DNA from: Flavobacteriales bacterium
GTDB taxonomy: Bacteria > Bacteroidota > Bacteroidia > Flavobacteriales_F > PHOS-HE28
Direction of reading: 5' to 3'
NCBI GenBank assembly: GCA_039931265.1
Contig: JBDTSG010000147.1
Coordinates: 17,642 to 81,641 of the forward strand
DNA length: 64,000 nt
The notes below the pieces were generated by a model that did no database searches, was not told where the DNA came from, and saw only the letters and a list, made by a program, of their open reading frames with translations. The position numbers and the translations under genes are program-made. Shown one piece after another: positions 2,022 through 46,947 of the stretch (positions are counted from its first letter, which is position 1; every line of letters begins with the position of its first letter).

Positions 2022-2220
2022 GGCTGCAAAAGAACGAGGCCGCCCAGAAGGAACGGCCTTGAAAAGCGCAGAGGGGGGGATCGCCATATGAACGGCCATC
2101 CCAAAAGGGGGTGGCTTCAAGCAGCAGCACGCTACGCGTGCCGAGCTTTTACCGGCAGGATATGCTTGCGAGCAAGCTCGCGCACACGCCGCCGGTAAAA
2201 GCGCCGCTAACGCGGGTCGC

Positions 2221-2310
2221 TTGGCGGAGAGGGAGGGATTCGAACCCCCGGTGCCCTTGCGAGCACAGCAGTTTTCAAGACTGCCGCAATCGACCACTCT
2301 GCCACCTCTC
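2221..2310 (-). tRNA. tRNA-Ser (anticodon TGA)
   Basis: Reverse complement reads GGAGAGGTGGCAGAGTGGTCGATTGCGGCAGTCTTGAAAACTGC...GGGTTCGAATCCCTCCCTCTCCGCCA. It has a 7-bp acceptor stem, anticodon loop CTTGAAA, a long variable arm, a GTTCGAATC T-loop and a 3' CCA. Confidence 0.85.
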
Positions 2311-2455
2311 CATTTGGTGCTTGCAAAGCGCCGCGAAAGTAGATGCCCGATCAACGGCGTGGATGGTGCAAGGAACGGCGGTCGATCGGTGAGCTGCGGG
2401 GATATCTTTGAGGACCTTGCTCCAACACCATCCCCGATGCGTCGGGGCGTACCGC

Positions 2456-18086: not shown

Positions 18087-18359
18087 GCGAATAATATATG
18101 CTCGATCAGCGGGGAGCACCTGCGAATTCCGATGAAAGGAAGACAGGCCTGCTGAAGTACAGGTTTGGTGCTGTCCGCTGGAACAGCCCATCCCTCCCCG
18201 GCTGCTCACTCAAGGAAAGCACCGTTCACTCGGAGTTGCTGTTCGAACTGCGTTCTTCAACATGACCGACCAGCAGCGCGATGTCTTCATGATGAAGGTG
18301 TGCAGGGATGGCGACCCCGATCGGGCCAAGGCCTTCAGCAGCAACGACCCCGCAGCGAA

Positions 18360-18455
18360 CTACGCCGTCTGCTTCACACTCTTCTTCGCCGCGATCGCCT
18401 TCTCCACCTCCGCAATGGCCCGCTTCGTCTTCAGCAACGAATCCGGAGTAACGCT
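18360..18455. repeat. Degenerate (~90% identical) duplicate of the 3'-terminal ~95 bp of ppsA (copy at 18760..18857)
   Basis: In the ppsA frame it reads ...VKSVTPDSLLKTKRAIAEVEKAIAAKKSVKQTA*, against the genuine ppsA C terminus ...SVTPDSLLKTKRAIAEVEKTIAVKKSVKVEA*. The CTA (TAG) stop is retained at 18360..18362. Confidence 0.7.
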
Positions 18456-18748: not shown

Positions 18749-18761
18749 GGCCACAAAGCAA

Positions 18762-21218
18762 CTACGCCTCCACCTTCACACTCTTCTTCACCGCGATCGT
18801 CTTCTCCACCTCCGCAATAGCCCGCTTCGTCTTCAACAACGAATCCGGTGTAACGCTGATGGAATCGATCCCCAGTTCCACCAGGAACTGCGCAAAGTCC
18901 GGAAAGTCAGAAGGCCCTTGGCCGCAGATGCCCACTTTGGTTCCGGTACGTTTCGCGGTTTCGATCAGCAGCTTCAGCATGGCTTTTACGGCCGGGTTGC
19001 GCTCGTCGTAGAGGTGGCTGACCAGTGCGCTGTCGCGGTCCAGGCCAAGGGTGAGCTGGGTGAGGTCGTTGCTGCCGATGGAGAAGCCGTCGATGTGTTT
19101 GGCGAACTCTTCGGCGAGGATGATGTTGCTGGGGATCTCGGCCATGAGGTAGAGTTCCAGACCTTCCTTGCCGCGCTTCAGGCCGTATTCGTCCATCACG
19201 CCTTTCACCTTTTGCAGTTCTTCCACGGTGCGGCAGAAGGGCACCATGACGACCACGTTCTTCAAGCCCATCTTCTCGCGCACACGGCGGATGGCCTTGC
19301 ACTCGAGGCCGAAGGCTTCCTTGTACACCTCGCTGTAGTAGCGGCTCGCGCCGCGCCAGCCGATCATCGGGTTCTCCTCGGTGGGCTCGAAATGTTCGCC
19401 GCCCAGCAGGTTCTTGTACTCGTTGCTCTTGAAGTCGCTGAAGCGCACGATCACCTTGTTCGGGTAGAAGGCCGCGGCGATTTTCGCGATGCCGTAGCTG
19501 AGCTTTTTTACGAAGAAGGTCTCCTCGTCTTCGTAGCCGTTGATCAGGTAGCTGATCTTGCCGCTGAGGGCCACATCGCCGAGCTCCTTGTGTTGCAGCA
19601 GCGCGAGCGGGTGCGCTTGGATGTAGTTGTTGATGATGAACTCTTCGCGCGCCAGGCCGACACCGGCGTTCGGCAATCCGGAGAATTTGAAAGCGAGATC
19701 CGGACTTGCGACGTTGAGCATGATCGGCGTCTTCGTCTCCGGCATGTCGGCGAGCAGCGTTTCCTCTTTGCTGAAGGGAATGATACCGTGGTAGATGATG
19801 CCGACGTCGCCTTCGCAGCAACTGGCGGTCACTTCCATGCCGGTATCGAGCAGGTCGGTGGCGTTGCCGCAACCCACGATGGCGGGCACGCCCATTTCGC
19901 GCGCGACGATCGCCGCGTGGCAGGTACGTCCGCCTTTGTTGGTGATGATGGCGCTGGCCTTCTTCATGATCGGCTCCCAATCCGGGTCGGTCATGTCGGT
20001 AACGAGCACGTCGCCCGCTTGGAAATCCTTGCCGTCGCCGCCACCGCCACGACCGTCGAGGCTGTATAGGATGCGCACTTTTCCGCTGCCGATGCGATCA
20101 CCGATGGCGATGCCACGCGTGACTTCTTTCACCACGGCGGGCTTGTCGATCTTGTATTCCACAACACGATCCGTGGCCTTGCGGCTGTGGATCGTTTCGG
20201 GCCGCGCCTGCACGATGAAGAGCTGCTTGGTGAGTCCGTCGATGGCCCACTCCACATCCATCGGGCACCAGTGGCCTTTCTTGTCGCTGTAGTATTTCTC
20301 GATGGCCGCCACACTGCGCGCGATCTCCAACGCCTGATCATCGCTGATGCAGAAACGGTTGCGCTGCGCACGTTCCATGGGGATCACGGACACAGGCTTT
20401 CCGGGCTCGCCACCATAAACCATTTTGCGGTCCTTGTTGCCGAGCTTCTTCTCGATGATGCTACTGAAGCCTTCGGCCAATGTGGGCTTGAAGACGAGGA
20501 ACTCGTCCGGACTCACGGCACCTTGCACCACCATTTCCCCAAGGCCATAACTGCCGTTGATCAGCACCACGTCCTTGAAACCGCTTTCCGTATCGAGGCT
20601 GAACGCCACGCCGCTGCTGCCCACATCGGAGCGCACCATCTTCTGGATACCCACGCTGAGACCCACTTGGAAGTGGTCGTAGCCCAGGCTTTCGCGGTAA
20701 ACGATTGCGCGATCGGTAAAGAGCGAGGCGAAGCAGTTACGCACCGCACTGATCAGGTCCTGGTGGCCGCGGATATTGAGGAAGGTTTCCTGCTGCCCTG
20801 CGAAGGATGCATCGGGAAGATCTTCCGCAGTGGCTGATGAACGCACGGCCACGTCGGTTGCTTCCTGGCCATACTTCTGGCTCATTTCATCGTAGCGCTG
20901 AAGGATCCCTTTCCAGATCTCTTCCGGGAACTTGCCGTTCTTGATCAGCGTTCGAACCGCCAAACCGGTGCGACGGATGTTCTCCACGTCATCCACGTCC
21001 AAGCCCGCCACGATGTCGCGGATCTTCTGGTCGAGCACATTGTGCGCAATGAAAGCCTCGTAGCTCGCCACGGTGACGACGAATCCGCCGGGCACTTCCA
21101 CACCGAGCTTCCCCAGGTGCTGGATCATCTCCCCGAGGCTGGCGTTCTTGCCGCCCACCGTGGGGATGTCGCTCAATTCAACTTCGTGGAGCCATTTGAG
21201 GTAGGGAGCGGTGGGCAT
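18762..21218 (-). CDS. ppsA: Phosphoenolpyruvate synthase (pyruvate, water dikinase)
   Basis: MPTAPYLKWLHEVELSDIPTVGGKNASLGEMIQHL aligns with the E. coli PpsA N terminus; the PEP-utilising and PPDK-type domains continue to 830 aa. The track start at 21254 is a TTG. Confidence 0.9.
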   Translation of the reverse strand: MPTAPYLKWLHEVELSDIPTVGGKNASLGEMIQHLGKLGVEVPGGFVVTVASYEAFIAHNVLDQKIRDIVAGLDVDDVENIRRTGLAVRTLIKNGKFPEEIWKGILQRYDEMSQKYGQEATDVAVRSSATAEDLPDASFAGQQETFLNIRGHQDLISAVRNCFASLFTDRAIVYRESLGYDHFQVGLSVGIQKMVRSDVGSSGVAFSLDTESGFKDVVLINGSYGLGEMVVQGAVSPDEFLVFKPTLAEGFSSIIEKKLGNKDRKMVYGGEPGKPVSVIPMERAQRNRFCISDDQALEIARSVAAIEKYYSDKKGHWCPMDVEWAIDGLTKQLFIVQARPETIHSRKATDRVVEYKIDKPAVVKEVTRGIAIGDRIGSGKVRILYSLDGRGGGGDGKDFQAGDVLVTDMTDPDWEPIMKKASAIITNKGGRTCHAAIVAREMGVPAIVGCGNATDLLDTGMEVTASCCEGDVGIIYHGIIPFSKEETLLADMPETKTPIMLNVASPDLAFKFSGLPNAGVGLAREEFIINNYIQAHPLALLQHKELGDVALSGKISYLINGYEDEETFFVKKLSYGIAKIAAAFYPNKVIVRFSDFKSNEYKNLLGGEHFEPTEENPMIGWRGASRYYSEVYKEAFGLECKAIRRVREKMGLKNVVVMVPFCRTVEELQKVKGVMDEYGLKRGKEGLELYLMAEIPSNIILAEEFAKHIDGFSIGSNDLTQLTLGLDRDSALVSHLYDERNPAVKAMLKLLIETAKRTGTKVGICGQGPSDFPDFAQFLVELGIDSISVTPDSLLKTKRAIAEVEKTIAVKKSVKVEA

Positions 21219-21357
21219 GGGTAAGATGGATATGGGAATATGACGCGCGTTCAACGGAAGGTCATGGCGAAGGTTAGCAACCGACCCGGAATTGCACCCT
21301 AACGCTCCCCGAACGTCGTGGTTGTGTGAAGAAGCAACGCTCCTAACCCAGCGCCGA

Positions 21358-32742: not shown

Positions 32743-33483
32743 ATGATCAAGGCGCTTGTGGTGGATGATGATGCAGGCAATCGGCAGTACTTGCGCGCGT
32801 TGCTGGGCAGCATCGCACCCCAGGCGGAGGTGGTCGGCGAGGCCAGCAACATCTCGGACGCGCGCACGGCGATCCTTGCCCATGGCCCCGACTTGGTTTT
32901 CCTTGATGTGGAAATGCCGGGCGGCAGCGGCTTCGATCTCCTGAAGCAATTCGGAACATGGCCTTTCGAGGTGATCTTCACTACGGCTTACTCGCGTTAT
33001 GCGATCCAGGCCATCCGCTTCAGCGCATTGGACTACTTGCTCAAACCCGTGCAGCCTGACGAATTGAAAAGCGCGCTGGACAGGTTCCGTGCGCAACATC
33101 CCGACGCCGCCTCGCGCAGCGAAGTGCAACAACAGTTCATCAGCAACATCGCTCATGGCGATGAGCAAGCGTTGAAATTGACGCTCTCCACTGGCGACCG
33201 CAGCTACTTCGTGCCACCCATGGATGTGATGCACTGCAGCGCAGACGACAACTATACCGAGTTGCACTTAACGGACGGCCGACGCTTCGTGAGCGCCCGC
33301 ACACTGAAGGAATACGAAGAGATGCTGGAGCCGTGGGGCTTCCTCAGGGTACACCGCTCCTCGTTGGTGAACCGTTCTGCCGTGTCGCATTTGGACGATA
33401 CCCACCTGGTGCTGAAGAGCGGGACCCGCGTGGAAGTGAGCCGCCGCAAGCGCGAGGAAGTGATACGGGCGTTGGCCTCTTGA
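32743..33483 (+). CDS. LytTR-family response regulator
   Basis: MIKALVVDDDAGNRQYL...DLVFLDVEMPGGSGFDL is a REC domain; the C-terminal LytTR DNA-binding domain has ...LRVHRSSLVN. Confidence 0.85.
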   Translation: MIKALVVDDDAGNRQYLRALLGSIAPQAEVVGEASNISDARTAILAHGPDLVFLDVEMPGGSGFDLLKQFGTWPFEVIFTTAYSRYAIQAIRFSALDYLLKPVQPDELKSALDRFRAQHPDAASRSEVQQQFISNIAHGDEQALKLTLSTGDRSYFVPPMDVMHCSADDNYTELHLTDGRRFVSARTLKEYEEMLEPWGFLRVHRSSLVNRSAVSHLDDTHLVLKSGTRVEVSRRKREEVIRALAS

Positions 33484-33571
33484 GCCGCTCCCTCAGCGGA
33501 ACAACCGCTTGCTCATGCGCCCTTCCGGACGCGTGCTCAACCGCACACTTTTCGGTCACGAACCGAAAACC

Positions 33572-36034
33572 ATGCGCACCAGAGCCCACCTTTCCGACCT
33601 CGCGATCCCTGCTGCTATCCTGTCGCTTCTGGCATTGGGCTTGACAGCGTCCGCGACTTCCGTGCGTGTTGGTTTCATGGAGAACAAGGGGCAGATACAC
33701 GATCAGTTCCGCAAGCCGAACGCGGCTGTGTCGTTCCTCTTGAGCGCTCCCGGCATGAACGTTCAGTTGCGCAGGGATGGGTTCTCGTACGATACGTATG
33801 TAGTGATGGACAGTGAAATGGTGACAGAGTTGGACAGTGAGAAAGCGTTGGATAGTGCAATGGATATGAAGGGAAGGGGGGCGATGGATGTGAACGTGGT
33901 CGCGACCACCTTCGCCTTCCACCGCATCGACATCCGGTTCGTGGATGGGGATCCGAACGCGGAGATCATAAGGGGCGGTCGCAGCGAGGACTACACGAAC
34001 TACTACACCGATGTGACCGGTGAGGCGGGCGCGACGTTGGTCCGTTCCTACTCTACCATAACGTACAGCAACGTATGGCCGAACATCGATGTGCGCTTCA
34101 ACAGCGGCGAGAAAGGCTTCAAGTACGATGTGGTCGTGCGGCCCGGTGGCGATGTGAACGACGCTCGGTTCGCCGTGGAAGGCGCACTGGTGAGCAAGGG
34201 TTTGGACGGGCGGCTTGTGTTCAGTTGGGGCAGCGGAACAATGGAAGAAGTGATCCCGGAGAGCTGGCTGGAACTGGATGGGAAGCGCGAACAAGCAGCG
34301 GTCAGCTACCGCATCAACGGTGCAGCGCAGTTCGGCTTCAATTCTCTTCCCCAAGGCAAGAGCACCTTGGTGATCGACCCCTATCCCGATCTGTATTGGG
34401 CTACTTACTATGGTGGCAACTTGGCGGATACGTTCAGTGGAGTTGCCATGGACGGCGGTGGTTCAGCGTATGCAAGTGGGAGTACGAAGTCCGCGGCCAG
34501 TATCGCCACTGCCGGATCCTTCGATGCGGTGTTCACCGGTAGCGAGAACGCCATGCTGGTGAAGATGAGCCCGAACGGCGCGCGCGCCTGGGCCACCTAC
34601 TTCGGCGGGACCGGTTACACCGCAGCGAACGCATGCGCGTACTCTGGAGGTGCGCTCTGGATCGGTGGGCGCACCGATTCCCCAACCGGGATAGCTACCG
34701 CAGGTGCCTTCCAAGCCACTCGGGATCCATTCTCGGCGGACGCCTTCCTGGCCAAATTCAACACGGCCGGTGTGCGACTTTACGCCACCTACTTCGGCGG
34801 CCGGGCCGCAGACGCCATCACCGATATCGCTATCGATGCAGGCGGCTGGCTCGCGGTGGTCGGCTATACCGATTCGGACAATGTGATCGCGACCATCGGT
34901 AGTGCGGACGCCTCCTACGGGGGGAACACGGACGGTTTCGTTTCGCGGTTCACACCGGCCGGCTCGCGTGTGTGGGGGTGCTACATCGGTGGCCCTTCCA
35001 CTGACCGTGTTTCGGGTGTCACCATCGTGGGCACCACTGCGCTCGCCGTTTGCGGATCCACCAGCAGTTCCACCGGGCTTGCTTCAGTGGGTGCGTGGGA
35101 TGCCTCTTTATCAGGTACCAACGATGCCTTCCTTGCCTCGTACTCATTGGGCGGTCCGCTATCCTGGAGCACCTACTTCGGTGGATCCGGTGCCGAGACC
35201 GGCTATGACTGTGCGTGGAACGGCAGCGCGGCCATCGCCATTTGTGGGCATACCAACTCATCGACAGCCATCGCCACGGCAGGCGCACAACAAACAGCCT
35301 TCGGTGGAGGAGTGGACGCTTTCCTTGCCTCGTTCAGCACTTCAGCAGGCAGCCGCATCTGGGCCACTTACGCAGGAGGTTCCTGCTGGGACGACCTTAC
35401 GGCCATCTCTTACAACGGCTTTGGTCAATGGGTAGTGGGCGGGGCCACGTGCTCGGACCTGGGCATGGCCACTCCGGGTGCGTACGATACCGTGCATGAC
35501 TGGTACGATCTGTTCCTCACTGGTTACGATGTCACCGGTGCGCGGCTCTGGGCCACGTACATGGGTTGCAGCGTGCCCGAATACACCAACGATATAGTGG
35601 CCGGCGGCAACGTGGCCTACGTGGTGGGGGAAACCATCGCCCCTGGCACGTTCGCCACGGCAGGTGCGCACCAAAGCGCTTACGGTGGTGGATTGAGCGA
35701 TGGTCTCATAGCGCGGTTGAATCTCACCCCCCCGGCCGCTCAAATGAGCCCCGATGAAGGTCGCGATCATTCCGCCGGTGGACTCGATGCACGGATCGAC
35801 AACGACAGGATAGTGCTACGCATGATGGATGCTGATGGCAACGCGACCACTGGTCAGGCGCGCGCCATGCTCACTATCTACGATGGAAGCGGCCGCACGG
35901 TGCTGATGCGACCCTGGCCCGAGAACACGCTGGACATGCAGCTACCGATCAATGGTATCAGCGCCGGGCCTTTGATGGCGGTGATCGCCCATGAGGATGG
36001 ATTGTACCACACCGCTCGCATCGTGATCCCTTGA
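33572..36034 (+). CDS. T9SS-sorted secreted protein with SBBP beta-propeller repeats
   Basis: Signal MRTRAHLSDLAIPAAILSLLALGLTASA; repeated ...WATYFGG... SBBP-type units; a C-terminal sorting-like domain ends ...LYHTARIVIP. Confidence 0.7.
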   Translation: MRTRAHLSDLAIPAAILSLLALGLTASATSVRVGFMENKGQIHDQFRKPNAAVSFLLSAPGMNVQLRRDGFSYDTYVVMDSEMVTELDSEKALDSAMDMKGRGAMDVNVVATTFAFHRIDIRFVDGDPNAEIIRGGRSEDYTNYYTDVTGEAGATLVRSYSTITYSNVWPNIDVRFNSGEKGFKYDVVVRPGGDVNDARFAVEGALVSKGLDGRLVFSWGSGTMEEVIPESWLELDGKREQAAVSYRINGAAQFGFNSLPQGKSTLVIDPYPDLYWATYYGGNLADTFSGVAMDGGGSAYASGSTKSAASIATAGSFDAVFTGSENAMLVKMSPNGARAWATYFGGTGYTAANACAYSGGALWIGGRTDSPTGIATAGAFQATRDPFSADAFLAKFNTAGVRLYATYFGGRAADAITDIAIDAGGWLAVVGYTDSDNVIATIGSADASYGGNTDGFVSRFTPAGSRVWGCYIGGPSTDRVSGVTIVGTTALAVCGSTSSSTGLASVGAWDASLSGTNDAFLASYSLGGPLSWSTYFGGSGAETGYDCAWNGSAAIAICGHTNSSTAIATAGAQQTAFGGGVDAFLASFSTSAGSRIWATYAGGSCWDDLTAISYNGFGQWVVGGATCSDLGMATPGAYDTVHDWYDLFLTGYDVTGARLWATYMGCSVPEYTNDIVAGGNVAYVVGETIAPGTFATAGAHQSAYGGGLSDGLIARLNLTPPAAQMSPDEGRDHSAGGLDARIDNDRIVLRMMDADGNATTGQARAMLTIYDGSGRTVLMRPWPENTLDMQLPINGISAGPLMAVIAHEDGLYHTARIVIP

Positions 36035-36124
36035 ACCGCTCCCTCAGCGCCGCGACCGCTCGCTCGGAGTTCCTTCCGCACGAGCGGTGGCGGCGTTTGC
36101 TTCGACACGATAACGATGCAACCA

Positions 36125-37732
36125 ATGAAAACACTTCTCCTCCCCTTCGCATTCGTGACTTCCAGCGCGCTGGCTCAATGGAGTACCGATCCCGCTGCAC
36201 CGCTGCAGGTGTGTGGTACGGCAGGAGCGCCTTCCGCGCCGAGCGTATTCTCCGATGGCTCCGGTGGCTGGTTCGCCTTCTGGACGGACAAACGCACCGA
36301 CCAGACCAACCGCGAAATCTATGGCCAGCATTTGGACCCCGACGGCATGGCGCTTTGGCCGAACGATGGAAAGCTGATACACAATGAACCCGGATCAAGC
36401 ATTGAGGAGATCGCTGCTGCGCGATTGGACAATGGCAATGTGATGATCGCGTACCTATTCCGCCCGGCGGTCTTCCAAGACACGCTGAGAGCCCTTGCGA
36501 TCGACGCCAACGGCGATCCGGTGTGGTCCGCACCGACGCACATCACACAGTGCGGCTCACCGATCCTCGGCCTTGGCGATCTGCGCGTGATGAGCACTGC
36601 TGGGGGTGCCTACGTTGCTTGGTACGACACCTACTTCGGGGGGAGCAACGGTATCAACGTTACACGGGTGACCAGCGCGGGCGATCTGCCCTGGGGTGTG
36701 GACGGCTATGCCATCCCAAGCGCGGCCTACGGACCGTATGAGTTGCTCAACGACCACGCCACTGGCGCGGTGGTGCAGTGGCGCACCGGCAACGGATCGG
36801 GTGCCCACCTGATGGCAATGCGGGTTGATAGCACAGGTGCGAACGTTTGGGCCGCCAACGTGCAGACCAGCGTGGGCAGCGGTGGTCTGAATTATGCCTT
36901 CCACTCCACGGTGGACGGACTTGGCGCTCATTTGACCGCCTTTGTGGACTTACCGCACCACATCGTGATGGCCCGTGTGGACACTACCGGCGCGCTCACG
37001 TACTCACCTTCGCCCGTTAGTGTTTGCACCTTCGCCAGCGATCAGGACCAGCCCATGGTGGTGGTGAGCGAGGGCTACACCTTTGTTGCTTGGACCGACA
37101 ACCGCCCACCTGCGAACTATAGGGACTTATATCTGCAGAAGCTGGATGCCGACGGTCTACCACAATGGGACCCCGATGGTGTGGCCGCCATCCAATTGAA
37201 CACGTACATACCCACTCCCGGACTTGTCTTATCCGATAGCGGTGCGGTGATCGCCACCATCGACGCGAACGTTGCAGGCTATTCCGCCATGCGTATGCGC
37301 GCGGATGGCACCGCCGCCTGGCCAGCGCCTGTGCAATTCTGCACACCCGCGTTCAATCCGTTCTACACCTCGCAAACACAACATGCCGATGGAGAAGGTG
37401 GTGTGGTGAGCTTCTGGCTCTCCAGCGGCATTGCGATCCACGCCGCGCGCATCCATCGGAACGGATCGCTCAACAACGATGTGGGCATCGATGAACATGC
37501 TTCCTCGACCAGCATTGCCGCTTATCCGAACCCAGCGAACGATCTGATCACCTTCACCTTGCCCGCCAACGAGCGGGCCACGCGGATCGAACTGATCAAC
37601 ATGACCGGCGCCATCGTTGCACATCACAGTAGAACAGGCACGATCAATATCCATGCGCTCCATGCCGGCAGCTACACCGCGCGCATCCGTACGGCGCATG
37701 GTGTGTACTTCTCCCGCTTCATCAAACTTTGA
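36125..37732 (+). CDS. T9SS-sorted secreted protein
   Basis: Signal MKTLLLPFAFVTSSALAQ; C terminus IAAYPNPANDLITFTL...ATRIELINMTGAIV...GSYTARIRTAHGVYFSRFIKL. Confidence 0.7.
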   Translation: MKTLLLPFAFVTSSALAQWSTDPAAPLQVCGTAGAPSAPSVFSDGSGGWFAFWTDKRTDQTNREIYGQHLDPDGMALWPNDGKLIHNEPGSSIEEIAAARLDNGNVMIAYLFRPAVFQDTLRALAIDANGDPVWSAPTHITQCGSPILGLGDLRVMSTAGGAYVAWYDTYFGGSNGINVTRVTSAGDLPWGVDGYAIPSAAYGPYELLNDHATGAVVQWRTGNGSGAHLMAMRVDSTGANVWAANVQTSVGSGGLNYAFHSTVDGLGAHLTAFVDLPHHIVMARVDTTGALTYSPSPVSVCTFASDQDQPMVVVSEGYTFVAWTDNRPPANYRDLYLQKLDADGLPQWDPDGVAAIQLNTYIPTPGLVLSDSGAVIATIDANVAGYSAMRMRADGTAAWPAPVQFCTPAFNPFYTSQTQHADGEGGVVSFWLSSGIAIHAARIHRNGSLNNDVGIDEHASSTSIAAYPNPANDLITFTLPANERATRIELINMTGAIVAHHSRTGTINIHALHAGSYTARIRTAHGVYFSRFIKL

Positions 37733-37851: not shown

Positions 37852-38502
37852 CTACTGCCAAGCGTCCTGCTTCCTGAACGGTGATCGTTCCATCCAACGC
37901 ACGTTGCGCCATAGGCCGAAGAGCAATGCGTACGCGAACCATGCGGTGATCGTGCCGATCAGGGCTCCAGCAACAACATCTTCCGTGAAATGTTGGCTGA
38001 TCCATACCCTGCTACCGGCCAGTAGCACGGCAACAACGGCCAGCACGATGGACCAGCCACGCTGGTCGATGAGCAGAGCCACCGACAGACAGAGACCGAA
38101 AGCAGCAGCGCTATGGCCGCTGGGAAAACTGAAATGCTGCATCAACTCCGTTCCCTCGGGTATGCGCAGGCCGGGCATCTGTTCCAAGAAGTACCCGGGG
38201 CGATGGGCTGCGAAAACACTGCGTTTCAATGTTTGTACTGCCAAGGAACCGAGCAGCGATGCTCCTCCGACCAACAGCATGCTCCTCCAACTGCGCCACA
38301 AGAGAGCCAATGCGATCACGCCGGTGAGGTAGCCATCAGCGATATGCGTCCCGTACACGAAGATGGGGTCGGCCCACTGCGGCAAGGAGGCGTTGATGCG
38401 CTGGTGCAATTCCAATTGGGTGTTTCCCAGCATGAGCCCGACCGCAACCCCGCACCACGCCAACAGCACGATCATGAAGGGCAGCAACGCGCGGTTCGCC
38501 AT
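37852..38502 (-). CDS. PAP2 family phosphatase (membrane)
   Basis: KRSVFAAHRP...PSGHSAAAF...SRVWISQHFTEDVVAG is the PAP2 KxxxxxxRP / PSGH / SRxxxxxHxxxD signature. Confidence 0.8.
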   Translation of the reverse strand: MANRALLPFMIVLLAWCGVAVGLMLGNTQLELHQRINASLPQWADPIFVYGTHIADGYLTGVIALALLWRSWRSMLLVGGASLLGSLAVQTLKRSVFAAHRPGYFLEQMPGLRIPEGTELMQHFSFPSGHSAAAFGLCLSVALLIDQRGWSIVLAVVAVLLAGSRVWISQHFTEDVVAGALIGTITAWFAYALLFGLWRNVRWMERSPFRKQDAWQ

Positions 38503-38850: not shown

Positions 38851-41800
38851 TCAGGGCAGTTGCTCCTGGCGTGTTGTCGTAGGAACGCTTCCGCCAACGT
38901 TCACCAGGATCGGATCGCGATCGTTGTTCACACCGATGTACTTGGTGACGCCATCGAGGTTGATGTCCGTGACCATGTAGCCCGGTGTGGTGTTCGTGGG
39001 TACACTGCCACCGATGTTCACCAGGATCGGATCGCGATCGTTGTTGGTGCCGATGTACTTCAACATGTTGTCGCGCACCACGTTGCCGCTCCATTGTGCC
39101 CATTTGCCATTGGGAAGTTGTGTGCGGGCCTGCGTGCCATAGGTGGCGGTGGTGGTCAGCGTGAAGTCAATGCTCTTCTCGTCCTTGTTCAACAGGGTGC
39201 TCGTGCCGATCATCACCCCGAAGTGGTTGCGGTGGCGAACAGCGATGAAGTAGTTGTCGCTGGCAACGTTGAAGAGCATCCGAGGGTAACCATCGGTGCC
39301 TATGATATCCCCGTCGCGTTGCAACAAGGCGCTCCGCGTTGCAAGCACCTGCGCACTGTTGTTCTTGTTGCGCAGTTCAACCAGCACCCAATCCACGATC
39401 GCGTTCTGGCCGGTTACAGCAAGCATTCCCGGCGATACCGTCTCCCCTCCTCCACCTCCGGCATGCGTAAAGCCGAGGCCCGTGAAGGGTTCGGTCGACG
39501 GAATGAACCCTTGCGCGCGAAGGTCATCGCGCATCAATCCGGTGTTCGTGTCGAAGGCACCCTGCAATACCGTCCGCAGTTTCACACTCGGTGAACAATC
39601 CTGCCAACGTGCCAGATAAGCGCCCGCTACGATGGTGCGCGTCGGAACGCTCGGCCGTTCCCAGCGCACCGTCATATGATCGCTTCCTGTTCCCTCCTTC
39701 TGCAGAAACTCGAAGTAGTAGTACACGCCTGCTTGCAACTGTATGCCTGCGCTGCGCTGGGTTGGGTACTTGGCGTACTCGGTATCGTTCGTCCAGCCCG
39801 CAACACTGGCGATCTGCTGCTTCAATTCAGGCTTGGCATTGAGGCTCAGATACAGAACGGAAGCCTCATTGCTCGTAACCGTGAAATAGAACAGTCCCGT
39901 CTCCGGCGCTATGATGTAGCCACGCATGCGTGTGCCGGTATTGTCGCCCCAGTTGGTCGGTCCCTGGATGCTCGTTGGGAATGAAGATCCGTTCGGGCTG
40001 TTCGGATAGTTGGCGTTGCTCGTAAGGTCGCTCACCGCTACACCGGAACCGATACCCGTCCAGAATTCGCGCAGTATGCTGCCAGCTGCACCAACGCACT
40101 GGGGTGGGTCCAAAGAGATGACACTGATAACGCGCGACGCATGCCCGACCAAGCCTTCATTGTCCGTTACGGTGAGGGTTACCACATGATCGCCAGCGCT
40201 GGTGAAAGTCTTGCTTGGCGACGGTCCGGTGCTCATTGTACCATCCCCGAAATCCCAGGCATAGCTCGCTATGGTCCCGTTGTCAGTGCTTGATGATCCA
40301 CTGAAATTAACCGGGAGCGGCGCTTGCCCGGAGCTTACGTTGGCGACGATCACCGCCACGGGCGGGGTATTGGCGCAACGCGGTTGCAGGTCATGCGTAA
40401 CGGTCGTGCTCAATCCCTTTGAATCAGTAACCGTGTATTTCACCTCGTACCAATAGTCGTCGATCGCGCAACCGACACCACTGATCACGGTGTTCGTTGT
40501 GGCGGTGTAGACGGGACTTTCGGGGTGCGTGTGGTTGTTGTGGTGGAAGATCGTTTGCCACTGGTGCGTCAATGGCAGGGAGTTGGGTTCAAGGTCGATT
40601 GCCGTTCCAGCACAGGCGTAGGTCGTATCCACACCCACCGGGTAGTGATGTCCATCCGGAAAGCTCGTAATGCTCACCAAGGGTGGCGTGTTGTTCACGC
40701 TGACGATCAGCGTTGCCGTGTTGAAGGCACTGCTCGGGTCGAGCACCGTTAACGTGACGTTGTATGTGATCGGGTTGCCGTTGAGCGGTGTGTACGTGTG
40801 CAGTGGGTTGGGCAACGAACTGTTCGGTGTGCCATCACCGAAGTTCCAACTGTAAGTGAGGGCTGCGTTCTCCGGATCGGTACTGTTGCTGCCTGTGAAC
40901 TGCACCGTGAGCGGGCCAGGCCCGTACTGCACGTTCTGTTGCGCAACAGCGGCTGGGGGCAAATTGGTCACCCCGATGGGGGCGATCTTCCGAATGGTGT
41001 AGGTATCGTAGCGTATGTACCAAAGCGCGTGGTCGGGGCCCTCTGTAATGAATACCACCGGCCCTAGAATGTCACCGAAGCTGGCCACGCTCACCGGACC
41101 ATTGTCCGCATTGAACGTGAACCGGCGGATCCACGCACCAGCGTAGTCGGCGTTGAAGTACACGTTCTGGTAACCGAGCGGCCAACCAATACCCGTAAGC
41201 CATGTACCGCCAACGGACGCGCTGCCGCCGAACCGGGGCCCCGTTACCGGGCTACCGGGCATATCGATGTCGAAGGTCACTGCAGTATTACCACTGAACC
41301 CTGCACAACGGCTGCGGTTCGCATGCGCCCAGTCGATCTTCGGTCGGCTGTGGAACCAGTGCGGCACCTCCAGCGGCACTTGCACCGCCGCATTGCACGG
41401 ATTCGGATGGCCGTTCAGGGGCATTTGCGTTTCCTGTTTGAGCAGGTCCTTGAAGTTGAAGTACTGCTGCGTGCATCCTCCGGTACCGAACAGCGGGTTC
41501 GGCATGTCGGGATTCGCAGTGGGTACGGTGTCGAACGCCAAATGGCTTTCCATTCCCTCGTACAAAGGCCACCCGAAATTCTGGCCGGGGTCGGTACAAA
41601 CGTTCAGTTCCTCCCAATCATCAGAACCGACATCACCGATGTAGAAAGCCCCGGGGTTCCCATCGGCCGGGTTGGCGCTGCCGCTACCGGGGCGGCGTGT
41701 CATACGGTACGGATTGCGCAGGCCCGAGGCCCAGACCCGGCTCTTGGGCGCACGCGGTTGCAACGGATCATAGTACGGGTTGCTCGGAACGCCATCGCCC

Positions 41801-42564
41801 GTGTTCGGGTCGATCCTCAGAAGTTTTCCGTTGTAGCAATTGAGCAGTTGGCTCCTGAACGAACCGATGTTCTCGTTCGGGCGGATGATGCTGTCGTTGA
41901 GCGCTTGGCTCCAGTAGGTCTCACTCGCACTACCAAAGTCATTGGAGCTGTAGCTCCCTCCGTCACCAACGGTGGCCATCAAGGTGCCGTCGGCGCCGAA
42001 AACCAGTTGGCCGGTGCTGTGACTTTCGTGCAGTAAGGGCACTCCTGTCTTCTTGGTTTCACCCAATAGGACCACTCGGCTGTTGTCATCCACCGTATTG
42101 AAGTTGGGACCGATCGCGGTGTACCGCGTGATCCGCATGATCGTCGCTGAGAAGTAGTCGTTCACGAAAATGCTGTAGTTGTCAGTGCCATAGTTCAGGA
42201 GGTGGTGGCGATCAACAGCGTACAAAGCGTAGATGCGTCCATTGCTAAGGAAGTTGGGATCGAGCGTAAAGCCCAGAAAACCATGATCACGCCATTCACC
42301 CACTTCGGTATTGATGTCCAGGAGCGGCGGGTTCAATTTCACACCGTTCTCCACGATCCACACGATGCCGGCTTTCTCCCATACGTACATCCGGCCGTTG
42401 GCATCGAACGTGAACCCCACCGGTGCGTTGAACCCGCCCATCACCAACGCATCGGTGAAACCTGACGGAACGGACTGCGAACTGACCTTGGTCGATGAGA
42501 ATGCGAACAGCATTAGGGCGATCACCCACGCCGAGAAGGGGTCAGAGTTGATGGTCCGGTTCAT
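38851..42564 (-). CDS. Large secreted multidomain protein A (GSDH-like beta-propeller + PKD repeats + PA14 + unassigned C-terminal module)
   Basis: Signal MNRTINSDPFSAWVIALMLFAFS. SVPSGFTDALVMGGFNAPVGFTFDANGRMYVWEKAG is GSDH-like. PKD-like repeats follow (...DPENAALTYSWNFGDGT...). The PA14-like block is GYIIAPETGLFYFTV...YYYFEFLQKEG. The C terminus carries two NNDRDPILVN(I/V)GGSVPT repeats. Confidence 0.8.
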   Translation of the reverse strand: MNRTINSDPFSAWVIALMLFAFSSTKVSSQSVPSGFTDALVMGGFNAPVGFTFDANGRMYVWEKAGIVWIVENGVKLNPPLLDINTEVGEWRDHGFLGFTLDPNFLSNGRIYALYAVDRHHLLNYGTDNYSIFVNDYFSATIMRITRYTAIGPNFNTVDDNSRVVLLGETKKTGVPLLHESHSTGQLVFGADGTLMATVGDGGSYSSNDFGSASETYWSQALNDSIIRPNENIGSFRSQLLNCYNGKLLRIDPNTGDGVPSNPYYDPLQPRAPKSRVWASGLRNPYRMTRRPGSGSANPADGNPGAFYIGDVGSDDWEELNVCTDPGQNFGWPLYEGMESHLAFDTVPTANPDMPNPLFGTGGCTQQYFNFKDLLKQETQMPLNGHPNPCNAAVQVPLEVPHWFHSRPKIDWAHANRSRCAGFSGNTAVTFDIDMPGSPVTGPRFGGSASVGGTWLTGIGWPLGYQNVYFNADYAGAWIRRFTFNADNGPVSVASFGDILGPVVFITEGPDHALWYIRYDTYTIRKIAPIGVTNLPPAAVAQQNVQYGPGPLTVQFTGSNSTDPENAALTYSWNFGDGTPNSSLPNPLHTYTPLNGNPITYNVTLTVLDPSSAFNTATLIVSVNNTPPLVSITSFPDGHHYPVGVDTTYACAGTAIDLEPNSLPLTHQWQTIFHHNNHTHPESPVYTATTNTVISGVGCAIDDYWYEVKYTVTDSKGLSTTVTHDLQPRCANTPPVAVIVANVSSGQAPLPVNFSGSSSTDNGTIASYAWDFGDGTMSTGPSPSKTFTSAGDHVVTLTVTDNEGLVGHASRVISVISLDPPQCVGAAGSILREFWTGIGSGVAVSDLTSNANYPNSPNGSSFPTSIQGPTNWGDNTGTRMRGYIIAPETGLFYFTVTSNEASVLYLSLNAKPELKQQIASVAGWTNDTEYAKYPTQRSAGIQLQAGVYYYFEFLQKEGTGSDHMTVRWERPSVPTRTIVAGAYLARWQDCSPSVKLRTVLQGAFDTNTGLMRDDLRAQGFIPSTEPFTGLGFTHAGGGGGETVSPGMLAVTGQNAIVDWVLVELRNKNNSAQVLATRSALLQRDGDIIGTDGYPRMLFNVASDNYFIAVRHRNHFGVMIGTSTLLNKDEKSIDFTLTTTATYGTQARTQLPNGKWAQWSGNVVRDNMLKYIGTNNDRDPILVNIGGSVPTNTTPGYMVTDINLDGVTKYIGVNNDRDPILVNVGGSVPTTTRQEQLP
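39023..39663. repeat. 641-bp tract 100% identical to 42920..43560 (paralog gene-conversion block)
   Basis: A hand comparison of both copies shows no mismatches across the tract, while the flanks diverge immediately (~85% identity). Confidence 0.8.
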
Positions 42565-42747
42565 TCGAAGGTCAATGTTGAAGATCGGGCGAGGCAAGCT
42601 ATCCGGTGTTTCAATACGGGTCAAGGTGCCACCAGAACGATCCCATGGGCGCGGAACGGACCTCCCTTGACATGTCCTCACCGGCAGCACGCCGCACTTC
42701 GTGAAGGGAACCCTGGGGCCATGGCAGCGCGAGGCCTGAGGCTTCCA

Positions 42748-45700
42748 TCACGGCAGTTGCTCCTGCTTTGTCGCTGTCGGCAGGGATCCACCCAAGTTCA
42801 CCAGGATCAGGTCGCGATCGTTGTTCGTGCCGATGTACTTGGTCGATCCGTCAAGGTTTATGTCCGTCTGCTGGTAACCCTGGGCCGTGTTGGTGGGAAC
42901 AAGCCCGCCGATACCCACGAGGATCGGATCGCGATCGTTGTTGGTGCCGATGTACTTCAACATGTTGTCGCGCACCACGTTGCCGCTCCATTGTGCCCAT
43001 TTGCCATTGGGAAGTTGTGTGCGGGCCTGCGTGCCATAGGTGGCGGTGGTGGTCAGCGTGAAGTCAATGCTCTTCTCGTCCTTGTTCAACAGGGTGCTCG
43101 TGCCGATCATCACCCCGAAGTGGTTGCGGTGGCGAACAGCGATGAAGTAGTTGTCGCTGGCAACGTTGAAGAGCATCCGAGGGTAACCATCGGTGCCTAT
43201 GATATCCCCGTCGCGTTGCAACAAGGCGCTCCGCGTTGCAAGCACCTGCGCACTGTTGTTCTTGTTGCGCAGTTCAACCAGCACCCAATCCACGATCGCG
43301 TTCTGGCCGGTTACAGCAAGCATTCCCGGCGATACCGTCTCCCCTCCTCCACCTCCGGCATGCGTAAAGCCGAGGCCCGTGAAGGGTTCGGTCGACGGAA
43401 TGAACCCTTGCGCGCGAAGGTCATCGCGCATCAATCCGGTGTTCGTGTCGAAGGCACCCTGCAATACCGTCCGCAGTTTCACACTCGGTGAACAATCCTG
43501 CCAACGTGCCAGATAAGCGCCCGCTACGATGGTGCGCGTCGGAACGCTCGGCCGTTCCCAACGCACTGCCATGTGATCGCCGCCACCGCCTTCCTTCTGC
43601 AAGAACTCGAAGTAGTAGTACACACCCGCCTGCAACTGGACCCCTGCGCTCCTTTGCGTCCCGTACTTGGTGTATTCCGTTTCGTTCGTCCAACCCGGTA
43701 CGCTGGCGATCTGTTGCTTCAATTCAGGCTTGGCGTTCAGACTTAAATACAGGATCGAGGCATCATCGCTGGTCACGGTGAAGTAGTAGAGCCCGGTTTC
43801 AGGAGCGATGATGTAGCCGCGCATTCGGGTACCGTAGTTGTCGCCCCAGTTGGTCGGTCCTTGAATGCTCGTTGGGAACGAAGATCCATTGGGGCTGTTC
43901 GGGTAGTTCGCGTTGCTCGTAAGGTCGCTCACCGCTACACCGGAACCGATACCCGTCCAGTATTCACGCAGTATGCTGCCCGCTGCGCCAACGCATTGGG
44001 GTGGATCGAACGTGATCACGCTGATCATGCGCGATGCGTGACCGACCAGACCATCGTTATCCGTGACCGTAAGGGTTACTACATGATCACCCGTGCTGGT
44101 GAACGTTTTGCTCGGCGCTGATGAAGTACTTGTGGTGCCATCGCCGAAATCCCAGGCGTAGCTCACGATCGTACCATTGTCCACACTGGTACCGCCATTG
44201 AAGTTCACCGCCAACGGACCTTGGCCTGCGCTTACGTTGCTGACGATCACTGCCGTGGGCGCAATGCTGCTGCAACGCGGCTGCAGATCATACACAACGG
44301 TCGTGCTCAGCCCTTGAACATCGGTTACCGTGTACTTCACCTCGTACCAGTAATCATCGGTGTAGCAACCGAGACCGCTGATCACGGTGCTCGTCGTCAC
44401 TGCGGTAACGGGGCTCTCGGGGTGAACGTGGTTGTTGTGGTGGAAGATCGTTTGCCACTGATGCGTCAATGGCAAGGAGTTGGGCTCAGGATCAGTTGCT
44501 GTTCCAGCACAGGCGTAGATCGTATCCACCCCGAGCGGATAGAAGTGCCCGTCCGGGAAACTCGTTATGCTCACCACAGGCGGCGTATTGTTCACGCTGA
44601 CGATCAGCGTTGCCGTGTTGAAAGCGCTGCTCGGGTCGAGCACCGTTAACGTGACGTTATATGAGATCGGGTTGCCGTTGAGCGGTGTGAAGGTGTGCTG
44701 TGGGTTGGGTAGCGAACTGTTCGTTGTGCCATCACCGAAGTTCCAGATGTAGGTAAGCGCGGCGTTCTCCGGATCGGTGCTGTTGCTGCCGGTGAACTGC
44801 ACCGTGAGCGGGCCGGGCCCGTACTGCACGTTCTGCTGTGCCACAGCGGCCGGGGGCAGATTCGTGACCCCGATGGGCATCACCTTCCTAATGGCACCGG
44901 TATCGTAACGCACATACCACAAACCACCGTCAGGACCTTCCTTCACGAAGACAACTGCGCCCATGCTCGAACCGAAGTTGGCCACGTTCACTGGTTTGTT
45001 GTCTGCATTGAACGTGAACCGTTTGATCCAAGCGCCCGGGTAGTCGGCATTGAAATATGTGTTCTGGTACCCGATCGGCCAACCGATGCCCGTAAGCCAT
45101 GTGCCACCAACCGAGGCATTCCCGCCGAAGCGTGGCCCCGGCACCGGACTTCCAACAGCATCGAGATCAAAGGTCACTGCCGTGTTGCCGCTGAAACCGC
45201 CACAACGGCTGCGGTTGCCATGTTGCCAATCGATCGCGGGGCGGCTATGGAACCAATGCGGCACGTTCACGGGTACCTGTACCGCGGCATCGCAAGGGTT
45301 CGGGTGACCGTTGAGGTGTACCGGTGTGTCCTGCTTCAAGAGATCCTGGAAGTTGAAGTACTGCTGCGCGCATGATCCTGTGCCATAAAGCGGGTTCGGC
45401 ATATCCAAGTTGGGCGTGAGCGCGGCCGCGTAGCTCGTGTTGTTCTCCAATCCTTCGAAGATGGGCCAGCCGAAATTCTGGCCGGGGTCGGTGCTCACTT
45501 GCAGGTCTTCCCATGTACCCCAGCCCACATCACCGATATAGAATACGCCCGGGTTGCCATCCGCCGGGTTGGTACTGCCGCTACCGGGTCGGCGTGTCAT
45601 GCGGAACGGGTTCCTCAACCCCATTGCCCAAACACGGCTTTTCGGTGCACGTGGCTGAAGCGGGTCGTAGTAAGGATTGCTCGGTACGCCATTGCCCGTG

Positions 45701-46470
45701 TTCGGATCCAAGCGGAGCAACTTCCCGTTGTGGCAATTGAGCAACTGGCTACGCATGGCGCCCACGTTCTCAGCGGGGCGGATGATGCTGTCGGTCAGGG
45801 CTTGTGAGAAATAGGTCGCACCGTCATTTCCCACATCCGTTGCGTTGTAGCTGGCACCATCACCAACGGTTGCCATCAAGGTTCCATCCGCACCGAAAAC
45901 CAACTGGCCCGTGCTGTGACTTTCGTGAAGCAAAGGCACACCCGTCTTCCTCGTCTCACCGAGCAGCACGAAGCGGCTGCTGTAGTCCACCGTATTGAAG
46001 TTGGGACCGATGGCCGTGTACCTCGTAATGCGCATGATGGTCGCGGCGTAGTACTGGTTGGTGCCCGCATTGTAGATACCGGTGCCAGTGCCGTAATTCA
46101 TCAAATGGTGCCGGTCCACCGTGTACAGCATGTACATACGCCCGTTCGTCAGAAAATCCGGATCGAGGGTGAACCCCAGGAAACCGTGGTCGCGCCAATC
46201 ACCTACTTCCTCGCTGATGTCCAACAGCGCAGGACTGAGTTTCACGCCGTTCTGCACGATCCACACCCTGCCCGCCTTCTCCCATACATACATGCGGCCG
46301 TTAGCATCGAACGTGAACCCCACCGGTGCAGTGAACCCGTTCATCACCAACGCGTCGTTGAAGCCCGACGGAACGGTTTGTGCGCAAGTGCTTGGGCCGT
46401 TCAGCACCATACCGACCAGCAATAAGAACGCACCGGAAAAGCGCAGATCAAGCACAATGGACTTCTTCAT
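42748..46470 (-). CDS. Large secreted multidomain protein B (tandem paralog of A)
   Basis: Signal MKKSIVLDLRFSGAFLLLVGMVLN. It has the same GSDH-like / PKD / PA14 / C-terminal architecture as A. About 200 C-terminal residues are identical to A, and the last ~50 diverge. Confidence 0.8.
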   Translation of the reverse strand: MKKSIVLDLRFSGAFLLLVGMVLNGPSTCAQTVPSGFNDALVMNGFTAPVGFTFDANGRMYVWEKAGRVWIVQNGVKLSPALLDISEEVGDWRDHGFLGFTLDPDFLTNGRMYMLYTVDRHHLMNYGTGTGIYNAGTNQYYAATIMRITRYTAIGPNFNTVDYSSRFVLLGETRKTGVPLLHESHSTGQLVFGADGTLMATVGDGASYNATDVGNDGATYFSQALTDSIIRPAENVGAMRSQLLNCHNGKLLRLDPNTGNGVPSNPYYDPLQPRAPKSRVWAMGLRNPFRMTRRPGSGSTNPADGNPGVFYIGDVGWGTWEDLQVSTDPGQNFGWPIFEGLENNTSYAAALTPNLDMPNPLYGTGSCAQQYFNFQDLLKQDTPVHLNGHPNPCDAAVQVPVNVPHWFHSRPAIDWQHGNRSRCGGFSGNTAVTFDLDAVGSPVPGPRFGGNASVGGTWLTGIGWPIGYQNTYFNADYPGAWIKRFTFNADNKPVNVANFGSSMGAVVFVKEGPDGGLWYVRYDTGAIRKVMPIGVTNLPPAAVAQQNVQYGPGPLTVQFTGSNSTDPENAALTYIWNFGDGTTNSSLPNPQHTFTPLNGNPISYNVTLTVLDPSSAFNTATLIVSVNNTPPVVSITSFPDGHFYPLGVDTIYACAGTATDPEPNSLPLTHQWQTIFHHNNHVHPESPVTAVTTSTVISGLGCYTDDYWYEVKYTVTDVQGLSTTVVYDLQPRCSSIAPTAVIVSNVSAGQGPLAVNFNGGTSVDNGTIVSYAWDFGDGTTSTSSAPSKTFTSTGDHVVTLTVTDNDGLVGHASRMISVITFDPPQCVGAAGSILREYWTGIGSGVAVSDLTSNANYPNSPNGSSFPTSIQGPTNWGDNYGTRMRGYIIAPETGLYYFTVTSDDASILYLSLNAKPELKQQIASVPGWTNETEYTKYGTQRSAGVQLQAGVYYYFEFLQKEGGGGDHMAVRWERPSVPTRTIVAGAYLARWQDCSPSVKLRTVLQGAFDTNTGLMRDDLRAQGFIPSTEPFTGLGFTHAGGGGGETVSPGMLAVTGQNAIVDWVLVELRNKNNSAQVLATRSALLQRDGDIIGTDGYPRMLFNVASDNYFIAVRHRNHFGVMIGTSTLLNKDEKSIDFTLTTTATYGTQARTQLPNGKWAQWSGNVVRDNMLKYIGTNNDRDPILVGIGGLVPTNTAQGYQQTDINLDGSTKYIGTNNDRDLILVNLGGSLPTATKQEQLP
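42920..43560. repeat. 641-bp tract 100% identical to 39023..39663
   Basis: See the paired feature at 39023..39663. Confidence 0.8.
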
Positions 46471-46557
46471 TCGTCTATGGATTTGACGGATTGAGCGTGG
46501 CAAACTATCGGGTTCGTCTACCCCAAGTCAAGTAACACCGATCATACATTGGCTGCC

Positions 46558-46833
46558 ATGGAACTGCTCCATCTGGACCTATGGATCACGGGACTGGTGC
46601 AGGGCGTCCGGTACCGGCAGACCGCGGTGGAACGAGCCACGGCGCTGGGTTTGAAGGGTTACGCGAAAAACCTGCCCGACGGCAGCGTGCGCATCGAGGC
46701 CGAGGGCAAAGAGGAAGCCTTGGATGCTTTCGTTGCGTGGTGCCGAACAGGCCCGTCGTTAGCCCGCGTGGATCAGGTGAAGAGCGCGATCGGGAAATGG
46801 GTGGGCTACACCACGTTCGAGACCCGACGGTAG
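46558..46833 (+). CDS. acyP: Acylphosphatase
   Basis: ITGLVQGVRYRQTAVERATALGLKGYAKNLPDGSVRIEAEG carries the acylphosphatase VxGxVQGVxFR signature. The track start at 46549 is a TTG. Confidence 0.8.
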   Translation: MELLHLDLWITGLVQGVRYRQTAVERATALGLKGYAKNLPDGSVRIEAEGKEEALDAFVAWCRTGPSLARVDQVKSAIGKWVGYTTFETRR

Positions 46834-46947
46834 GTTTCTTCACTCAAACGCTGTTGCCTTGAAGTCCGAGGCTTTCAGACCGACGGAGGGAGACCTTGCT
46901 TTTCAATGACTGCCGCTGGTTGTCGTCGCCGATACATTCGCGGCCGT

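Follow-up and report, generated by a model that had tools for sequence, protein, structure and literature searches.

Recurrent gene conversion as the probable origin of a 641-bp identical tract in two old tandem paralogs of a Flavobacteriales bacterium

Two large genes, here called A and B, lie head to tail on contig JBDTSG010000147.1 (171,749 bp) of a metagenome-assembled genome (MAG) filed at NCBI as 'Flavobacteriales bacterium'; their proteins are on record as MEO8069499.1 and MEO8069500.1. In the 64-kb stretch of this contig that we analysed (hereafter the window), the two genes share a tract of 641 bp that is perfectly identical, flanked on both sides by clearly diverged sequence. Judging from the sequences, we attribute this pattern to recurrent interlocus gene conversion by homologous recombination, to which we assign a probability of about 0.85. 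The features on which the argument turns are as follows (numbers are window positions).

38851-42564, minus strand: gene A, the downstream paralog, an open reading frame (ORF) translated into 1237 amino acids
42748-46470, minus strand: gene B, the upstream paralog, an ORF translated into 1240 amino acids
42565-42747, minus strand: spacer of 183 bp from the stop of B to the start of A
39023-39663, minus strand: identical tract, copy in A (gene nt 2902-3542, residues 968-1181), exact identity, synonymous divergence (dS) of 0
42920-43560, minus strand: identical tract, copy in B (gene nt 2911-3551), exact identity

The two copies of the tract agree at 641 of 641 positions, at an offset of 3897, and a mismatch stands directly at either end, such that the block cannot be extended by a single base. 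This is what the original prediction had claimed, and the coordinates and sizes of about 1240 amino acids that it gave for the two genes hold as well. Its figure of some 85% for their overall identity proved too high: A and B are 80% identical at the nucleotide level when the tract is included, 76.3% identical upstream (5') of it and 72.6% downstream (3'). In a MAFFT alignment of the two loci the next-longest exact run is 51 nt, and the chance of a 641-bp exact run at a background identity of ~76% is about 1e-72. The alignment of both genes thus displays an identity block and not a uniform scatter of substitutions. The tract has sharp, in-frame borders and leaves both ORFs intact. GC content and GC content at third codon positions (GC3) are flat over the tracts, giving no sign of GC-biased conversion.

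The tract comprises the last ~18 residues of a PA14 domain, a beta-sandwich module and the first of two NNDRDPIL motifs. The proposal that the C-terminal module is homogenised needs correcting in that the tract begins inside PA14 and not at a module border. At its 3' boundary the tract coincides with a 10-nt palindrome (GATCGCGATC; a weak hairpin) that lies within the first NNDRDPIL motif (window 39025-39039 and 42922-42936); a hairpin-break mechanism at this site was considered and rejected, 10 nt being too short to support one. It should also be noted that the second NNDRDPILV repeat, 117 nt away, matches the first 38 nt of the tract at 89-92% identity.

Synonymous sites separate recombination from selection. 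Upstream of the tract, the Nei-Gojobori method gives a dS between A and B of 1.20 and a ratio of nonsynonymous to synonymous divergence (dN/dS) of 0.10; hence, A and B are old and constrained. Within the tract there are 0 synonymous differences over ~153 synonymous sites, and the 95% upper bound on dS (Poisson, zero differences) lies below ~0.02, under 2% of the flank divergence, which means that the synonymous sites have been homogenised too. When the same segment is compared with its orthologues in related genomes, dS reaches 1.3-1.5 and nucleotide identity is 70-78%. Protein-level selection is therefore not the cause of the identity, and these synonymous-divergence results led us to reject selection on protein or nucleotide sequence alike. 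A constraint acting on the nucleotides themselves (an embedded RNA, a regulatory element or extreme codon selection), which would hold the copies identical without recombination, has nothing specific in its favour apart from the small palindrome at the 3' boundary; it is scarcely credible given how freely the segment varies between orthologues and its unremarkable GC3.

A and B are ancient tandem paralogs whose duplication is older than speciation. In a neighbour-joining tree of residues 45-530, an A-type clade (A, L003A and L009A, where L numbers denote related loci; bootstrap 100%) is sister to a B-type clade that holds B, L010B, L003B, L001, L002 and L004, with all single-copy orthologues falling there (bootstrap 96-100%). 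The three A-type genes have the signature YSIF[VI]NDYFSATIM in common. B is the orthologue of a single-copy gene in related genomes, one copy being present in the closest relatives (L001, L002, L004 and L039), while in L003 a complete B-like gene precedes the beginning of an A-like one, and a MAG of a sister species (GCA_049289815.1, JBATMK01) has both gene types, spread over three contigs. The B-then-A tandem is thus present in two other assemblies, L003 and the JBATMK01 MAG, and the arrangement of B 3' end, spacer and A 5' end recurs in L003 and L009. Control pairs of paralogs that belong to this family but come from more distant genomes (L064 and L031) are uniformly 65-69% identical and have no identity block.

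These observations bear on the proposal that a recent partial duplication or a single unequal crossover made the shared block, without conversion between old paralogs. A head-to-tail tandem is indeed a substrate for unequal crossing-over. However, one crossover would leave only one of the two sides diverged, and we rejected it on the mismatch map, in which both flanks are diverged; furthermore, the A and B lineages and their tandem order are older than several species. We regard this origin of the block as highly improbable.

The identical tract is not the only segment in which A and B are unusually close. Two further pairs of tracts, each at the same offset of 3897, lie upstream of it in the genes.

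40684-40965, minus strand: older tract in A (gene nt 1600-1881, start of the first PKD domain, PKD1), ~91% identical to B
44581-44862, minus strand: older tract in B, partner of 40684-40965
39940-40075, minus strand: intermediate-age tract in A (gene nt 2490-2625), ~95% identical to B, holding the 51-nt exact run
43837-43972, minus strand: intermediate-age tract in B (gene nt 2499-2634), partner of 39940-40075

In windowed estimates the older tract has a dS of 0.44-0.63. For A, B and the B-type gene of L003 (L003B), sites were counted at which A and B are alike, B and L003B are alike, or A and L003B are alike; the counts are given below in that order, by nucleotide position in gene A.

nt 133-1599, propeller: 112:211:113, not converted
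nt 1600-1881: 40:13:9, older tract, ~9% diverged (chi-square p = 4e-9 versus the propeller)
nt 2490-2625: 21:4:3, intermediate tract, ~5% diverged
nt 2626-2901: 18:30:22, no conversion signal
nt 2902-3542, the 641-bp tract: 139:0:0, latest event
nt 3543-3711, tail: 14:16:18, no pairing favoured

The trees change accordingly along the genes. In a tree of residues 531-700, A and B are sisters (bootstrap 100%), and they are sisters in the identical tract as well, where the pair is in turn sister to the B-type orthologue of L003. The mismatch map, windowed dS, region trees and triplet-site counts all agree on this mosaic of graded tracts; thus, the 641-bp tract is the latest of at least three events, and conversion has recurred. 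Some segments of A and B are closer to one another than to their orthologues even though the duplication predates speciation, and with a dS of 0 against ~1.2, sharp borders and an incongruent phylogeny (propellers in separate clades, core segments as sisters), the recent intrachromosomal gene conversion that had been predicted is supported.

Neither distance ratios nor trees allowed the donor of the last event to be inferred; the trees place the tract in the B-type clade, the direction being blurred by earlier conversions. A donor outside the pair has also to be weighed, namely a third gene of the family, located at another place in the genome, or foreign DNA, either of which would have overwritten the two copies independently. 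The C-terminal beta-sandwich module ends many other Flavobacteriales proteins, and our inspection covered 64 kb of the genome. Against this, the tract starts inside PA14, so that the donor would have to belong to the A/B family specifically; two events with identical end points would be needed in place of one; and the sister of the tract in the trees is the B-type orthologue of L003, which is to be expected of a resident sequence. Neither a third copy nor an inverted copy of the tract was found within the window, which answers the call for a third-paralog check for that part of the genome only, and no other database protein exceeds 90% identity to A or B. An outside donor is accordingly quite improbable.

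Outside the converted segments, the two ends of the genes follow a different course.

40966-42564, minus strand: A-type signal peptide (by eye) and GSDH-like propeller, no conversion detected, ~25% mismatches to B
44863-46470, minus strand: B-type signal peptide (by eye) and GSDH-like propeller, as delimited by identity map, trees and triplet sites
38851-39022, minus strand: C-terminal tail of A, the last 56 residues and stop, paralog-specific, holding the second NNDRDPILV repeat
42748-42919, minus strand: C-terminal tail of B, with the B-type motifs GGL.PTNT and LPTAT shared with L003B and L009

The tail of A is 72.7% identical to that of B, versus 86.6% (nucleotide) to the A-type tail of the sister species, and the A-type tail clearly stays paralog-specific across species. 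The tail of B is 72.1% identical to its sister orthologue, no closer than to A (72.7%), with only the motifs in common. The earlier statement that the propellers and the extreme C-terminus keep diverging therefore stands, and extends to the sister species, except that the first NNDRDPIL motif, counted there among the diverging repeats, lies inside the tract.

Evidence from a second species comes from the sister MAG, a short-read assembly made with MEGAHIT at k = 127 (contig names k127_*). In this MAG the locus is shattered into three contigs (L009 1-2138, L010 5219-6911 and L065 1-295) whose ends overlap by exactly k = 127 nt. L010, with a B-like 5' part, and L009, with an A-like 5' part, end at a homologous position; their last 127 nt are identical, while the window preceding the shared 127 nt is 58% identical (29/50 positions). 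At the other side, L009 starts with a B-like 3' end and L065 with an A-like 3' end followed by the PAP2 gene; the first 127 nt of these two are exactly the same, and they are 69% identical thereafter. Such ends bear the signatures of de Bruijn junctions leading into and out of a repeat common to both paralogs. This repeat opens at gene nt 1609, where the older tract of the window begins too, and ends at ...GATCCGATCCTGGTG, 4 nt past the 3' end of the window's tract at ...GATCCGATCCT. Hence, the outer limits of the convertible core are the same in two species. Between the species the shared 127-mer is 76-87% identical, and is therefore not simply ultra-conserved. Measured against recurrent homogenisation as described for other bacterial paralogs (PMC6053082), the sister MAG provides exact 127-mers at both limits of the core, with the intervening sequence not recovered and with two species only.

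Several points weigh against our interpretation. For the sister species, we deduce concerted evolution of the entire core from the contig junctions only. A full-length A-type gene from another species was not found: two metagenome scans with A-type-specific degenerate motifs returned 0 and then 13 matches, 2 of the 13 being family members and neither of them A-type, and a database search with the tract and tail (270 residues) yielded no close A-type fragment. No second assembly of the source species is present in the databases searched, where both 90% clusters have a single member, and look-ups of the exact proteins A, B and P0001 on other contigs gave no record. Finally, the source is itself a MAG, and bubble-popping, graph collapse or short-read polishing could turn near-identity into perfect identity.

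This last point can be put as a full alternative, in which the real copies differ and their identity is a product of de Bruijn collapse (a repeat edge traversed twice), of bubble removal or of a long-read MAG having been polished with short reads. Short-read contigs normally break at an exact repeat of 641 bp, as happened in the sister MAG; the source contig must therefore have been resolved by pairing or by long reads, either of which is able to impose one consensus, and there is no independent assembly of the species with which to compare it. Nevertheless, collapse or cross-polishing needs near-identical copies, and reads at the 73-76% identity of the flanks would not cross-map, so that an artefact would at most inflate an identity of ~97-99% to 100% and could not make identity out of sequence that is ~75% similar. 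The in-frame borders are sharp and both ORFs intact, the independently assembled sister species has identical paralog segments of at least 127 nt at homologous limits, and the older tracts of graded divergence show conversion occurring in A and B. We therefore consider an assembly or polishing artefact unlikely, albeit the least improbable of the alternatives to gene conversion.

Under gene conversion, A and B would exchange sequence by non-reciprocal homologous recombination. The exchange would be limited to a core at gene nt ~1600-3546, which comprises PKD1, an insert, PKD2, PA14 and the C-terminal beta-sandwich, while the GSDH-like propellers and, for the A type at least, the last ~56 residues would stay paralog-specific. 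The 641-bp tract would be the most recent event here, laid over a mosaic of older, partly decayed tracts. From what is established about bacterial recombination, RecA-type strand invasion, with gap or break repair using the paralog as template, is the presumable route, and earlier tracts would provide the identity needed by later events. The fixed limits may reflect selection against erasing the specialised ends, or diverged flanks that block heteroduplex extension (a mismatch-limited process).

A stronger form of this model is a stable, domain-resolved regime, in which a core of ~1.9 kb evolves in concert across speciations and both the propeller head, which is of a catalytic type, and the 56-residue tail are actively protected, with boundaries conserved within a few nucleotides. 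We put this forward tentatively and are inclined to doubt it. If true, it would imply selection for two proteins with the same scaffold or anchoring body that differ in the specificity of their heads and in the C-terminal 'address' of a Flavobacteriales C-terminal module that is widespread and uncharacterised.

As regards the products, A and B have a common domain order: by Pfam, a GSDH-like beta-propeller, PKD/Big_9, PKD and PA14/GLEYA, after which come the C-terminal beta-sandwich and its two-repeat tail. The propeller resembles GSDH and PQQ-dependent sugar dehydrogenases, its Pfam span covering residues ~46-360 and its extent reaching ~530; two PKD domains with a Big_9-like stretch follow, and PA14/GLEYA is at ~870-985. 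By eye, the N-termini of both proteins look like signal peptides, and the proteins are apparently secreted.

The C-terminal region of ~250 residues in A and B has no Pfam, NCBIfam or PDB-sequence match, and NCBIfam as a whole yielded nothing informative. An AlphaFold2 model of residues 988-1237 gives a confident beta-sandwich (model residues 1-175) and a low-confidence tail, and the matches from fold searches were confined to generic Ig/transthyretin-like sandwiches, apart from a weak resemblance to the type II X-dockerin. The Por_Secre_tail domain of type IX secretion system cargo (PF18962/TIGR04183-type) has no Pfam or NCBIfam match in either A or B; the neighbouring gene at 36116-37732 does carry it. 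The module itself (window 38851-39600 and 42748-43500; P0121-P0360) consists of the beta-sandwich and two KYIG.NNDRDPILV repeats and ends in a conserved EQLP. It is widespread, forming the C-terminus of many Flavobacteriales proteins that differ in their other parts, some of them annotated 'hemagglutinin protein', and its bearers include PKD, PA14, choice-of-anchor J, S8 peptidase, MAM and other proteins. Possibly it is a sorting or anchoring domain that has yet to be characterised.

The genes on either side of the pair agree with the synteny of the orthologous loci.

37852-38502, minus strand: PAP2 phosphatase gene downstream of A, a synteny anchor common to L001, L002, L064 and L065
46906-48054, plus strand: PD40/Tricorn-like gene upstream of B, the second synteny anchor

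Between B and the PD40 gene, ~400 bp (46504-46905) hold no Pfam-recognisable ORF, and L001 and L002 have a radical-SAM and an acylphosphatase gene in the corresponding interval, both of which are missing here; the acylphosphatase gene is also seen in L003, and in L064 a second family copy lies on its far side. A scan for promoters and terminators gave nothing exceeding the shuffled expectation.

Other repeats were noted in the window and in related loci. A direct repeat of 98 nt, 91% identical, is found at 18358-18455 and 18760-18857; its right copy is the 3' end of an 830-residue ORF (18762-21254, minus strand) that reads as PEP-synthase-like from its sequence, and its left copy, a stray fragment, lies downstream of the ORF at a distance of ~400 bp. 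Another, of 53 nt and 75% identical (33479-33531 and 36030-36082), is found where two neighbouring genes on the plus strand start, one for a DUF7948 protein (33509-36034) and one for the GH43-like protein with the Por_Secre_tail (36116-37732), and may be a common 5' region or leader. A tandem array of ~131-bp repeats, 86-94% identical, is present a few kb downstream of the orthologue in L001 (18918-19578), L039 (18921-19580) and L004 (18994-19429); that of L001 lies between a TrAA12/GSDH-like gene and an AIRS gene and overlaps two ORF calls of 44 residues. In three Pontibacter loci (L022 13810-15415, L027 13830-14783 and L028 13883-15707), tandem repeats of ~450-540 bp, 94-99.6% identical, encode PA14-like segments just downstream of distant homologues, and these may be separate cases of homogenisation or of recent amplification.

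Conversion between bacterial paralogs is already well documented; what A and B add is a domain-restricted pattern, with limits conserved between two species, and no new mechanism. For the outer-membrane paralogs babA/babB and homA/homB of Helicobacter pylori, PMC2795765 (citing Pride and Blaser 2002) reports that the 3' segments cluster by strain, in concerted evolution through intragenomic recombination, while the 5' segments diverge. A and B are alike in having paralog-specific heads, a homogenised downstream part and exported multidomain products. They are unlike the H. pylori loci, which are dispersed and where conversion additionally exchanges alleles inside the host, to the effect of adhesin or antigenic variation, in being adjacent, in having an additional protected C-terminal tail, in showing no evident variation function and in belonging to uncultured environmental Flavobacteriales. 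The suggestion that the tract serves variation of a surface protein is unsupported, the process being a homogenising one, and cassette-type antigenic variation of the pilE/pilS, vlsE or msp2 kind was rejected: both genes are full-length ORFs with N-termini that by eye resemble signal peptides, they are under purifying selection (dN/dS 0.10), and only two copies are present in the window.

Long-lasting concerted evolution has been described for tuf, mtrA and other bacterial paralogs (PMC6053082). As in those cases, synteny-conserved paralogs would here have been repeatedly homogenised in more than one species, and synteny separates conversion from lineage-specific duplication. The published cases, however, mostly concern whole-gene homogenisation of core housekeeping or pathway genes over hundreds of millions of years, whereas in A and B only an internal core is converted and the documented span is two sister species. 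Gene conversion is also reported for the PE_PGRS and other repetitive gene pairs of Mycobacterium tuberculosis, where resolution depends on long-read assemblies (PMC1762029, PMC13061034 and PMC12046097). The PE_PGRS genes are GC-rich repetitive antigen genes of a clonal pathogen; A and B, in contrast, are without low-complexity repeats and far more diverged (~76%) outside the tracts.

For those who work with such genomes, there are two practical consequences. Conversion tracts mislead the dating of paralogs, an overall identity of 80% here concealing a dS of ~1.2; in addition, tracts shared by paralogs fragment short-read MAGs, and the contig ends can be used to map them. The case also points to an uncharacterised C-terminal module common to many secreted Flavobacteriales proteins. 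For the locus itself, direct repeats of 641 bp spaced 3.9 kb apart should promote deletion of a 3897-bp unit, leaving a chimeric gene with the head of B and the tail of A, or amplification of that unit. Taken together, A and B are a clean case, found in nature, of bacterial concerted evolution by segments: conversion can hold some domains of old paralogs identical while others specialise, and its limits can persist across species.

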